This document shows, piece after piece, positions 55,201 through 58,200 of a stretch of 64,000 nt of DNA. How positions within the stretch are numbered: the first letter of the stretch is position 1; each line of letters starts with the position of its first letter. Made by a program: the position numbers. The DNA is from Escherichia coli. Its GTDB lineage: Bacteria; Pseudomonadota; Gammaproteobacteria; Enterobacterales; Enterobacteriaceae. The stretch lies in the NCBI RefSeq assembly GCF_048403405.1, contig NZ_CP183129.1; one strand, written 5' to 3'.

Positions 55201-58200
55201 CTGTACAATCAAAGAGGTGCAGTTTACCGCAGGACAAAAGCAGGATATTGATGTCACCACGCTGTGTTCTGTTGAGCAGGAAAATATTAACGGCCTTGGG
55301 GCTGCTTCAGAGATTTCCATGTCAGGCAACTTTTATCTGAATGCTGCCCAGAACGCGTTGCGCAGTGCCTATGACAATGACACCACGTATGGCTTTAAAG
55401 TTATTTTTCCGTCAGGCAACGGATTTACCTTTATGGCAGAGGTGCGTCAGCATACCTGGTCTGCAGGAACCAATGGTGTTGTGGCTGCAACGTTTTCCTT
55501 GCGCCTGAAAGGTAAACCTGTGCTGACGACAGAGCCGCTGAAAGTGAAGGCCGATTTAAAAAGCACGCTGCGGGTTGCTTCCGGAGCGAAACTTGAAATG
55601 GCGGTTGAGGCTGCGGGTGGTGTGCCGCCTTATTCTTATGTCTGGAAGAAAGGTGGTTCTCCTGTTTCCGGACAGACGGCGGCAACGTTCAGTAAGGCAT
55701 CGGCAGTATCCGGTGATGCGGGTGCATATACCTGCGAGATTTCTGATTCAGCAAGCCCGGTTAACAAAGTGACCTCCACTTCCTGCACTGTAACCGTCAG
55801 TTAATGAGGATGGATGTGATGACTAAAAATATCCGTAATCTGGCACTGGCAACGATGTCGGGGTTTCGCCATAAAACCGTTGATGTGCCTGAATGGGAGG
55901 GAGCAACGGTTGTGTTACGGGAACCTTCTGCAGAAGCCTGGTTGCGCTGGCAGGAGATCGTTAAAGCAAAAGATGATGAGACACCGTTATCCGTTGCGGA
56001 GCGCGCCCGCCGAAATCTGGAGGCAGATGTTGAACTGTTCATTGATGTTCTGTGTGATACCGGACTGCAACCCGTATTTTCAGAGGATGATCGTGAACAG
56101 GTGATTGCCGTGTATGGCCCGGTGCATGCGCGGCTTCTTCGGCAGTCTCTGGAACTGATCAGTGATGCCGGCGAGGTTAAAAAAAAGTAGCGCTTCCGGG
56201 GATGCGTTTTCTGATGATGCTGGCGCTCAGGATGGGGCGCACATTGTCAGAGTTACGCCGGGAAATGTCCACATCAGAAATCATGATGTGGGCAGAATTT
56301 GACAGGTTCAGCCCGCTGGGGGACGAACGGGCTGATATCCGGGCTGCCCAGATTGTTTCAGCTGTTTACGGTGCGCAGGGGGTCAAAGTGCCACTGAATG
56401 ATGCGCTTCTTCAGTGGGAGAAGGAGCAGACAGAAGGCGTATCAGATCCATTTGCCGGACTGGAAAACGCGCTTTTAATAGTGTCTCAGTGAGTCAACAT
56501 AACCGCTTCGGCGGTTTTTTTTCGTCCGGAGAATGAGTGTGGCGACATTACGTGAACTGATTATTAAAATCTCGGCAAATTCCCGGTCATTCCAGTCAGA
56601 GATCTCCCGGGCTTCGCGTATGGGGCAGGATTACTACCGTACCATGCAGAACGGAGGCCGGCAGTCCGCTGCTGCATCCCGTGAAATGCGGCGTGCACTG
56701 GCAGAAGTGACGGATCAGATAAATACAGCTAAATCTTCGGCACTGAATATGGCGGGGGCATTTGCCGGGGCTTTTGCTACCGGTCATCTTATTTCTTTCG
56801 CCGATGAGTGGAATTCAGTAAATGCCCGTCTGAAGCAGGCCTCACAGTCCAGTGATGATTTTCAGGCATCACAGCGTGAATTAATGGCGATCAGCCAGAG
56901 AACGGGGACGGCGTTTTCTGATAACGCCAGCCTTTTTGCCCGTTCTGCAGCTTCCATGCGGGAGTATGGTTACAGTTCTGAGGAGGTACTGAAAGTCACC
57001 GAGGCGATCTCCACGGGCCTGAAATTATCCGGTGCCAGTACAGCAGAAGCCAGTTCGGTGATCACGCAGTTCAGTCAGGCACTGGCGCAGGGAGTGCTGC
57101 GCGGTGAAGAGTTTAACTCGGTGAATGAGAACGGCGATCGTGTTATTCGTGCGCTGGCTGCGGGAATGGGGGTTGCCCGTAAGGATCTGAAGGCCATGGC
57201 GGATAACGGAAAGTTGACCGCCGATAAGGTTGTTCCTGCACTGATTAGTCAGCTTGGGGCATTACGTGATGAATATGCGGCAATGCCTGATACGGTTTCA
57301 TCCTCTGCAACCAAAGTTGAAAACGCCTTTATGGCCTGGGTTGGTGGTGCGAACGAGGCAAGCGGAGTGACGAAGACGCTCTCCGGTGTGCTGAATGGTA
57401 TTGCAGGCAATATTGACACTGTGGCAACCGCTGCCGGTGCTCTGGTTGCCGTCGGGGTAGCCCGATATTTTGGCAATATGGCGTCATCTGCTGGATCTGC
57501 AACTGCCGGATTAATTACTGCAGCCAGAAACGAAGTGGCTCTTGCGGAAGCGCAGCTCCGGGGGACACAGATAGCAACAGCCAGGGCGCGTGCGGCGGTT
57601 TATCGTGCGCAACAGGCGGTTGTTGCTGCTCGCGGTACCGAAAGGCAGGCAGCCGCAGAAGCGAAACTGGCTGCTGCCCAGGCATCACTTACCCGTAATA
57701 TTGCGGCCAGAACAGCAGCACAGACAACGCTGAATACTGTCACGTCAGTGGGAAGTCGTCTGTTAAGTGGAGCACTGGGACTGGTTGGTGGGGTGCCGGG
57801 GCTTGTCATGCTGGGGGCCGCGGCCTGGTACACGATGTATCAGAATCAGGAGCAGGCCAGAGAATCTGCACGCCAGTATGCCGCAACAATCGACGAAATT
57901 CGCCAGAAAACGTCGGCAATGTCGCTTCCTGAAGCGTCAGATAATGAGGAAAAGACGCGGCAGGCACTTGATGAGCAAAACAGGTTAATTGACGAGCAGA
58001 AAAGTAAGATTAAATCCTTACAGGAAAAAATTGCTGGCTATCAGTATGTGCTGGCAAACCCGGGCTGGACAACCGATAACGGTTTTATGATTAACCACAT
58101 GACGTCGGTAAAAACAGTCACAGAAGGGCTTGCAGAAGCAACAAATCAACTGGCAGTTGAACAGTCCCGTCTCACACAAATGCAGGGCAAAGCGCAATCC

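Follow-up and report, generated by a model that had tools for sequence, protein, structure and literature searches.

A predicted programmed -1 ribosomal frameshift site in the tail chaperone gene pair of an Escherichia coli prophage

The recoding of phage tail chaperone genes is one of the well-described examples of programmed frameshifting in bacteria. In phage lambda a low-level frameshift fixes the ratio of the G protein to the GT fusion, and the T domain works as a part of GT (PMC5009743). The underlying lambda G/GT studies (Levin, Hendrix & Casjens 1993; Xu, Hendrix & Duda 2004, 2013, 2014) are cited here to the extent that PMC5009743 summarizes them. According to the same source, few heptamers in E. 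coli are more prone to shifting than A_AAA_AAG. A 75-nt cassette from an Stx/O157 prophage that carries A_AAA_AAG_TAG gave 7% +/- 0.79 -1 frameshifting in E. coli, and a cassette of the mEp390 type, with G_GGA_AAG, gave 6% (Antonov et al. 2013, PMC3711429). The dnaX frameshift depends on a Shine–Dalgarno (SD)-like stimulator upstream and a stem-loop downstream of the heptamer, and attains ~50% (PMC3711429).

In this work we analyse a stretch of 64,000 nucleotides from E. coli (RefSeq assembly GCF_048403405.1, contig NZ_CP183129.1), hereafter the window. An earlier note on this DNA had predicted a G-T fusion made by -1 frameshifting. We conclude that the locus is very probably a programmed -1 ribosomal frameshift site, in a tail chaperone gene pair of the HK97/lambda type that belongs to an E. 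coli prophage.

The slip site and the genes that it would join

The features of the locus are as follows.

55100-55804, + strand: gene for the major tail protein, with an Ig-like domain at its C terminus, immediately 5' of G (PHROG 158, 5e-111; RefSeq 'immunoglobulin domain-containing protein')
55819-56190, + strand: G-analogue, a tail assembly chaperone ORF of the HK97 gp13 type, 123 aa (Phage_TAC_1, PHROG 344, PDB 2OB9)
56178-56180, + strand: -1-frame TAA adjoining the heptamer on its 5' side, the 5' limit of a productive shift window
56179-56186, + strand: A8 run that includes the A residues of the heptamer, where RNA polymerase may slip to a minor extent
56181-56187, + strand: slippery heptamer A_AAA_AAG in the correct X_XXY_YYZ register, with 0-frame codons AAA (56182-84) and AAG (56185-87)
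56188-56190, + strand: 0-frame TAG that ends G, directly 3' of the heptamer (a 'shifty stop' context)
56187-56492, + strand: T segment, in the -1 frame after the slip, from GTA (56187-89) to TGA (56490-92), 101 codons (Phage_tail_T, PHROG 337 and 14766)
55819-56492, + strand: predicted GT fusion, 224 aa, 123 from the G frame and 101 from the T frame (PHROG 14766, the size of HK97 gp14)
56539-59778, + strand (ORF start 56533/56539): tape measure protein gene, immediately 3' of T (PHROG 339, E = 0; TIGR01541, 1.1e-64; RefSeq)

The gene order is therefore major tail, G, T and tape measure, with the G/T pair between the outer two. Reading and three-frame translation of the sequence give the 0-frame codons GTT (56176), AAA (56179), AAA (56182), AAG (56185) and TAG (56188-56190), exactly the G terminus and heptamer position that the earlier note had reported. 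From 56181 the -1 frame contains no stop until the TGA at 56490-56492, a stretch of 103 codons, with the tape measure gene next, again as had been read before. A -1-frame stop between the heptamer and 56202 would speak against a fusion; translation of this interval shows none. The overlap of G with the -1 ORF is just 10 nt (56181-56190). Given the -1-frame TAA on one side and the 0-frame TAG on the other, a productive -1 shift is confined to these nucleotides, almost all of which are heptamer.

The upstream ORF had been proposed to be a tail chaperone, and profile searches bear this out. G begins at ATG 55819, which is also the RefSeq start and is preceded by anti-SD pairing of -8.5 kcal/mol, and its residues 1-123 match positions 1-124 of the 124 in Pfam Phage_TAC_1 (PF06222; E 1.9e-57). 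It also matches PHROG 344 (E 1.2e-44) and PDB 2OB9, 'Tail assembly chaperone' (E 4.6e-49). The T segment matches positions 1-69 of the 73 in Pfam Phage_tail_T (PF06223; E 1.3e-17), a family that lambda T also matches (E 3.7e-14), in agreement with its earlier designation as a T-analogue. NCBIfam returned no model matching G or T. The PHROG 14766 profile, of 224 positions, covers both the G and T halves end to end.

A bare heptamer is not rare in the window; it is the placement that counts. AAAAAAG occurs 25 times on the two strands, compared with 14.3 +/- 3.6 in shuffled sequences. When every stop-to-stop ORF of 100 codons or more in the window is counted, there are 96 in-frame X_XXY_YYZ heptamers, and at just three of them the -1 frame continues for over 100 codons beyond the 0-frame stop: the G/T site, the junction of the TerS and TerL genes, and a spurious antisense ORF. 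Four of the five in-frame copies of A_AAA_AAG, all except the one at G/T, meet a -1 stop within 7 codons.

The abundance of AAAAAAG, and the fact that the element is a chromosomal prophage, raise the question of whether this is a chance site in a decaying element whose G and T are both non-functional. We give this a negligibly small probability. Both ORFs are intact, with full-length and high-scoring family matches, the surrounding head-tail module is whole, and hundreds of E. coli genomes as well as sequenced phage records carry the locus at 95% identity or more. Of 5,426 complete E. coli genomes, 901 contain the prophage, and its carrier strains include IHE3034 and ECO_2_R. The strongest argument against chance is that homologues share the arrangement.

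Conservation and the case for a fused T

A tblastn search with the fusion protein matched 235 phage records and, among the matches listed, each one covering both halves was split into at least two pieces. We dissected 12 homologous loci, from HK97 to Burkholderia phages (~36-63% identity), together with lambda. In all 12 loci, and in lambda, T lies in the -1 frame and the slip codon falls in one alignment column. The heptamer itself varies. A_AAA_AAG is found in the window, the Stx phages 2851 and EH1995, Vibrio phage Pm34, phiE125 and Bcep176; A_AAA_AAC in a Halomonas phage; G_GGA_AAG in mEp390, ECP1 and lambda; and G_GAA_AAG in HK97 and HK106. A Klebsiella clade has A_GCA_AAG followed by TAA. 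The AAG TAA ending is present in 80 of 80 IMG/VR loci of this clade, with T in the -1 frame. As in the window, the slip codon is followed at once by a stop in the Stx, Vibrio, Klebsiella and Halomonas relatives.

The predicted fusion thus has the support of a shared -1 layout, of aligned slip sites, and of the records for HK97, HK106 and Bcep176, which annotate a joined frameshift product. Together with the anatomy of the site and the families of its two genes, this conservation is established by our analysis. Close relatives add little to it: the heptamer is invariant in 71 of them (IMG/VR and phage segments, 36 distinct sequences), but with 57 variable sites in 674 nt an invariant stretch of 18 nt is expected ~20% of the time. 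A scan of viral contigs with the G protein returned only 100%-identical copies, and one that started from an alignment of five sequences recovered the Klebsiella clade alone.

An alternative reading of the same genes is that T arises solely as a small protein of its own, from ATG 56214 or 56202, perhaps by re-initiation after the TAG at 56188, and that the heptamer is incidental. Both RefSeq and GenBank do annotate T in the window as a stand-alone CDS, separate from G. The Met of the 'FLM' peptide (56214) is kept in most homologues, and a moderate SD-like GGGGA (-5.7 kcal/mol) lies ~11 nt upstream of this codon, so that some independent initiation of T is possible. However, this element is weaker than the SDs of the neighbouring genes (-6.6 to -8.5 kcal/mol) and farther from its start, and lambda has Leu at the 'FLM' position. 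ATG 56202 has no SD (-1.1 kcal/mol) and is not conserved, with I, V, T or L in its place in relatives. Moreover, the -1-frame coding signal runs upstream of both ATGs. The peptide V-x-x-P-G-x-x-F-L-M is conserved in the -1 frame ahead of any conserved Met, and its codon changes (GTA/GTC, CCG/CCC, GGG/GGC) are synonymous in that frame. An exclusively separate T is also hard to reconcile with a slip motif in the aligned column of each clade examined, with frameshifting by the homologous cassette (PMC3711429), and with the action of the lambda T domain within GT (PMC5009743). We consider it very improbable, and the 224-aa GT fusion is likely to be the biologically relevant product that contains T.

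Mechanism and stimulatory elements

For the frameshift itself we envisage the following scheme, in which efficiency and function at this locus are inferred. Most ribosomes would translate G (55819-56190) and stop at the TAG at 56188, while a few percent would slip back by one base on A_AAA_AAG. Two routes are conceivable: a pair of tRNA-Lys on AAA-AAG may re-pair with AAA-AAA, or the P-site tRNA-Lys on AAG may slip while the slowly decoded TAG fills the A site. Translation would then resume with GTA GCG CTT CCG and continue in the -1 frame to 56492, yielding the 224-aa fusion (~25 kDa predicted). Its predicted junction peptide, which carries KKK, is ...GEVKKKVALPGMR... (also given as ...ISDAGEVKKKVALPGMR...). 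By analogy with lambda, G and the G part of GT would coat the tape measure protein, the T part of GT would recruit the major tail protein, and the frequency of slipping would set a fixed, low ratio of GT to G. The description of A_AAA_AAG as a classic slippery sequence is well founded, as it is in register here and the homologous A_AAA_AAG_TAG cassette shifts at the 7% given above. An efficiency of a few percent is to be expected at this site.

The run of eight A residues at 56179-56186 suggests another route to the same product, namely that the fusion arises mainly by transcriptional slippage, with RNA polymerase adding one A. The bacterial polymerase slips well on 9 A or T, an A8 run has been implicated elsewhere (PMC5009743), and An runs with n > 7 are listed in PMC3711429. 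Since ribosomal and transcriptional slippage would give an identical protein (...VKKKVALPG...), the two cannot be told apart from the sequence alone. Among homologues, run length at the aligned position ranges from A3 to A9, with A3 in mEp390, ECP1 and lambda, A4 in HK97, and A6 in the Stx phages, phiE125 and Bcep176, and the Stx cassette reaches its 7% with A6 alone (PMC3711429). These short runs and the activity of the A6 cassette indicate that the conserved feature is a ribosomal slip motif ending in AAG rather than the length of a homopolymer. Transcriptional slippage as the main source of the fusion is thus improbable, and ribosomal frameshifting remains the preferred reading.

There is, in addition, a small chance that the recoding signal is a composite one. 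Tandem slippage, P-site-only slippage against the TAG and polymerase slippage on the A8 run could then sum to a G:GT ratio that is unlike that of lambda, and a hairpin at 56223-56241, the codons of which are repeated in several enterobacterial relatives, might modulate the outcome. In the relatives of the Klebsiella clade, which end GCA AAG TAA, P-site-only slippage is the sole ribosomal route.

We looked for stimulatory elements on both sides of the heptamer. No significant 3' RNA structure was detected: the 60 nt 3' of the heptamer fold like shuffled sequences (z = 0.28), and z-scores for 60-100 nt downstream range from 0.28 to -1.43. This is consistent with a low efficiency and adds no support for frameshifting. 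The hairpin at 56223-56241 (GCGCUC..GGGCGC) was considered as a required stimulator and rejected. It starts 35 nt downstream of the heptamer, it is broken without compensation in Klebsiella MC05, ECP1 and the Halomonas and Burkholderia phages, and it is truncated in the Stx cassette that yields 7%. It is the only recurring hairpin, shared with the Stx, HK97 and Vibrio relatives, and it encodes the conserved ALRMGR motif. An upstream SD of the dnaX type was likewise rejected. The sole SD-like element in that position, GAGG (56173-76), is only 4 nt upstream of the heptamer and is not conserved, being absent from the Stx, HK97 and Vibrio relatives. The combination that marks a stimulated cassette of this type, an upstream SD-like element plus a 3' stem-loop at the right spacing, is absent here.

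Comparison with known systems

The G/T site brings nothing biologically new to the established G/GT paradigm, and its significance is mainly for annotation, as the 224-aa GT fusion is missing from the protein sets of the genomes that carry the prophage. How the site relates to four described systems is set out below.

E. coli dnaX shares with the window the heptamer A_AAA_AAG, the single tRNA-Lys and the translation machinery of the host. It differs in being stimulated, to ~50%, whereas the window has no conserved SD-like element or significant 3' structure. The Stx/O157 cassette is identical to the phage 2851 locus. Its genes are homologous to those in the window (~63% protein identity) and its A_AAA_AAG_TAG context is the same. 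Its A run is six residues long rather than eight, and only 51 of 75 nt around the site are identical to the window.

The earlier note had described the predicted fusion as being like that of lambda. This holds for the layout and for the T family. Lambda has the order V, G, T, H, with T in the -1 frame and a slip site that ends in AAG and is read by tRNA-Lys. The comparison does not extend to the G half, which is of the HK97 gp13 type (Phage_TAC_1), nor to the heptamer, which in lambda is G_GGA_AAG and lies six codons ahead of the G stop. In an alignment of 13 sequences, lambda G shows a poor fit to the Phage_TAC_1 G proteins. Lambda T is also longer, at 144 residues against 101, and a BLASTP comparison of the window T with lambda T is not significant (E 0.23), so their kinship rests on the Pfam profile and the multiple alignment rather than on pairwise BLASTP.

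In HK97, gp13 and gp14 belong to the same families as the window proteins in both halves (~61% identity, tblastn), and the G part has been solved as PDB 2OB9. The gene pair likewise has the major tail gene before it and the tape measure gene after it, and the sizes agree, as 123 + 101 residues give 224, the length of gp14. HK97 T occupies the -1 frame, its slip codon is in the same column, and the HK97 record states 'translated due to a -1 frameshift'. The two also differ. HK97 slips on CGG GAA AAG (G_GAA_AAG), a site that precedes the G stop by seven codons, and has an overlap of 52 nt, whereas the window has a perfect A_AAA_AAG that abuts the stop and an overlap of 10 nt. A further difference is the gp15 moron, which in HK97 separates T from the tape measure gene and which the window lacks. 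In summary, the site is an ordinary representative of the phage G/GT recoding that has already been well described in these systems.

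Reading frames at the slip site

The window is a chromosomal prophage of E. coli, and the ORF for its tail assembly chaperone G reads GTT AAA AAA AAG TAG in its own frame at 56176-56190 (+). The earlier note had proposed that A_AAA_AAG at 56181-56187 is a -1 frameshift site joining G to the next chaperone ORF, T. Reading the sequence and translating its frames bears out the X_XXY_YYZ register of this heptamer. The -1 frame has a TAA at 56178-56180, just 5′ of the heptamer; no stop was found between the heptamer and 56202, and the first after 56181 is the TGA at 56490-56492. This leaves 103 open codons, up to the end that had been given for T. 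Because of the upstream TAA and the open frame that follows, a long product can arise from a -1 shift only at 56181-56190, little more than the heptamer and the stop codon after it. Across the junction, just 47 codons are open in the +1 frame.

55100-55804 (+), major tail protein (PHROG 158, 5e-111)
55819-56190 (+), G, 123 aa from ATG 55819, the RefSeq start (Pfam Phage_TAC_1, full-length, 1.9e-57)
-1 frame, ending 56492, T (Pfam Phage_tail_T, 1.3e-17)
Next gene, tape measure protein (PHROG 339; TIGR01541)

The G product also matches PHROG 344 ('tail assembly chaperone') and PDB 2OB9 (annotated 'Tail assembly chaperone', 4.6e-49), and lambda T falls in the same Pfam family as T (3.7e-14). In PHROG 14766 (224 positions) the G part matches positions 1-121 and the T part 123-220; since this family spans both, fusion proteins of exactly that architecture have already been deposited. 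The major tail protein carries an in-frame C-terminal Ig-like domain: its residues ~140-251 match Hoc-like and Ig-containing PHROGs, and its RefSeq name is 'immunoglobulin domain-containing protein'.

T does lie just upstream of the tape measure gene, as had been noted, with 40 nt between stop and start. This gap holds the first of two terminator-like hairpins.

56501-56524 (+), intrinsic-terminator-like hairpin AACCGCTTCGGCGGTT followed by T8
55061-55087 (+), hairpin ACCCGCCGCTGGCGGGT with a T-rich tail, between the tail completion and major tail protein genes

In the HK97 and HK106 records a terminator is annotated in the position corresponding to the first hairpin, after the gp15 moron, and in E. 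coli Z1323CEC0014 a hypothetical ORF of 113 aa is inserted there. This hairpin resembles a vacant moron slot, or else an attenuator before the tape measure gene.

The bare AAAAAAG motif is common in the window, with 25 copies on both strands against 14.3 +/- 3.6 in shuffles. A scan of all stop-to-stop ORFs of 100 codons or more, covering both strands, found 96 in-frame X_XXY_YYZ heptamers, and in three of these the -1 frame runs more than 100 codons beyond the 0-frame stop: the slip site at 56181-56187, the junction of the small and large terminase genes (48539) and an antisense ORF that is not a gene. In-frame A_AAA_AAG occurs five times, and the four copies besides the slip site reach a -1 stop within seven codons. 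The significance of the slip site lies in its placement and above all in its conservation, not in the bare motif. A chance occurrence in a dead prophage is contradicted, as the module is intact and widely distributed. Around the site, 901 nt are 100% identical to strain ECO_2_R, and this stretch finds a match in 901 of the 5,426 complete E. coli genomes and in 11 phage records.

At the terminase junction, T_TTA_AAA lies in frame (48539-48559, +) five codons ahead of the stop of a 160-aa ORF (48075-48557), the apparent small terminase. A 585-aa ORF, apparently the large terminase, follows in the -1 frame (48557-50314), its start overlapping that stop as ATGA. Ordinary translational coupling probably accounts for this arrangement, with the heptamer a coincidence.

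Conservation across homologous loci

A tblastn search with the predicted 224-aa fusion matched 235 phage records; among the matches listed, every one spanning both halves came in at least two pieces. We dissected the junctions of 12 loci (~36-63% identity) and of lambda, and in each of them the -1 frame carries the T homologue.

Slip motifs at the dissected junctions
A_AAA_AAG: window; Stx phages 2851 and EH1995; Vibrio phage Pm34; Burkholderia phages phiE125 and Bcep176
A_AAA_AAC: Halomonas phage
G_GGA_AAG: mEp390, ECP1, lambda
G_GAA_AAG: HK97, HK106
A_GCA_AAG, then TAA: Klebsiella phage

A MAFFT alignment of 13 predicted fusions places the slip codon in a single column, and the -1-frame residues directly after it are conserved (V-x-x-P-G-x-x-F-L-M-x-L-A-L-R-M-G-R-T), including a part that precedes any conserved Met. 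When the window is compared with HK97, the codons for V, P and G there differ at third positions, and these changes are silent in the -1 frame alone. The heptamer is invariant in 71 close relatives, a test of little power (36 distinct sequences, 57 variable sites).

The HK97 record states 'translated due to a -1 frameshift', and joined CDS features are also present for HK106 and Bcep176, the latter labelled 'lambda G equivalent' and 'lambda T equivalent'. All inspected records of the window's prophage type have G and T as separate CDS with no slippage noted; the practical value of the finding is annotation correction. In phage vB_EcoM-606R7 (ON470580.1), which also has G annotated, the T region (1963-2290) is split into two more short 'tail assembly chaperone' CDS (1963-2100 and 2084-2290), which points to an indel or a sequencing error in the T of this assembly.

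In the Klebsiella clade, all 80 further IMG/VR loci end in AAG TAA with an overlap of only 10-16 nt, and the tandem heptamer is absent from the G end in these 80. The AAG slip codon abutting the G stop therefore recurs there and in several other clades. G ends GCA AAG TAA in these relatives (L088 796-805; L097-L176), with one GAA AAG TAA. Judged from these sequences, ribosomes in this clade would apparently reach a GT fusion only by a -1 slip of a single tRNA-Lys on A_AAG beside the stop. A_AAG alone is a minimal -1 site, and A_AAA_AAG is one of the heptamers most prone to shifting in E. coli (Atkins et al. 2016, PMC5009743).

Mechanism and stimulators

The best-supported mechanism is simple ribosomal slippage, with tRNA-Lys moving back one base on A_AAA_AAG. 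The tRNAs may slip in tandem at the P and A sites, or a P-site slip may occur before release factor reaches the adjacent TAG (a 'shifty stop'); both routes would give ...GEVKKK|VALPGMRFLMM... and the predicted 224-aa fusion. Antonov et al. 2013 predicted frameshifting in 41 genes forming a 'phage tail assembly chaperone' cluster similar to HK97, and tested two cassettes in an E. coli GST-MBP reporter (sequences in their Supplementary Table S2). Frameshifting was 7% for the A_AAA_AAG_TAG cassette and 6% for the mEp390-type G_GGA_AAG cassette (PMC3711429). By sequence comparison the 7% cassette is identical to the phage 2851 locus, with the heptamer and adjacent TAG as in the window.

Transcriptional slippage on the A8 run (56179-56186) would yield an identical protein and may be a minor contributor. 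Homologues, however, retain the arrangement although their runs are just 3-6 A long, and 7% was already reached with the A6 cassette (PMC3711429). An independent start of T, as annotated in RefSeq, is unlikely. A moderate SD-like element lies 11 nt upstream of ATG 56214, but at -5.7 kcal/mol it compares with -6.6 to -8.5 at neighbouring genes, and such a start would explain neither why the slip motif is conserved nor the coding signal ahead of this ATG nor the published frameshifting.

Returning to ribosomal slippage, no stimulator was found in the downstream folding or as an upstream SD-like element. Over the 60 nt downstream of the heptamer, folding is no more stable than in shuffled sequences (z = 0.28), and an SD-like GAGG is only 4 nt upstream and not conserved among the dissected loci. 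One further hairpin was considered.

56223-56241 (+), hairpin GCGCUC-N6-GGGCGC within the T coding sequence, 35 nt 3′ of the heptamer

It recurs in several enterobacterial relatives, and its codons, including the rarer GGG and CUC, are retained in Stx, HK97 and Vibrio relatives. As a required stimulator it was rejected: this distance argues against it, as does its encoding of the conserved ALRMGR motif; four lineages (Klebsiella, ECP1, Halomonas and Burkholderia relatives) have a disrupted stem with no compensating changes, and the hairpin is truncated in the cassette that still gives 7% (PMC3711429). By analogy with the lambda paradigm and the tested cassettes, an efficiency of a few percent would be expected without stimulators.

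Other RNA features of the window are as follows.

45230-45479 and 45556-45755 (+), three tRNA genes (Met-CAT, Arg-TCG, Arg-TCT) in the apparent prophage region, then a match to sRNA STnc100
39265-39453 (+), isrK and C4 antisense RNA (Rfam match)
22285-22592 (+), MicL sRNA (Rfam match)
8949-9027 (-), C0465 (Rfam match)

The three tRNA genes do not include a tRNA-Lys and are therefore irrelevant to the frameshift.

Comparison with known systems

The frameshift site is correctly identified but already known: the phenomenon and its family have been described and tested, and the exact motif-plus-stop context has been tested in a homologous E. coli prophage gene. The earlier likening to lambda holds in that the site would work like lambda G/GT; the heptamer is not lambda's G_GGA_AAG, and the family is that of HK97 gp13/gp14, of which the window site is a member. 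HK97 itself has G_GAA_AAG where the window has a perfect A_AAA_AAG. The annotated G frame at the slip region reads CGG GAA AAG in HK97 (934-941 of its locus) and HK106 (762-769), where P-site re-pairing would be imperfect, unlike on the G_GGA_AAG of lambda, mEp390 and ECP1. The differences of the window site from HK97 and lambda are small; among them, its heptamer is squeezed between a -1-frame TAA and a 0-frame TAG. With dnaX the site has the heptamer in common, but it is not a dnaX-type stimulated cassette.
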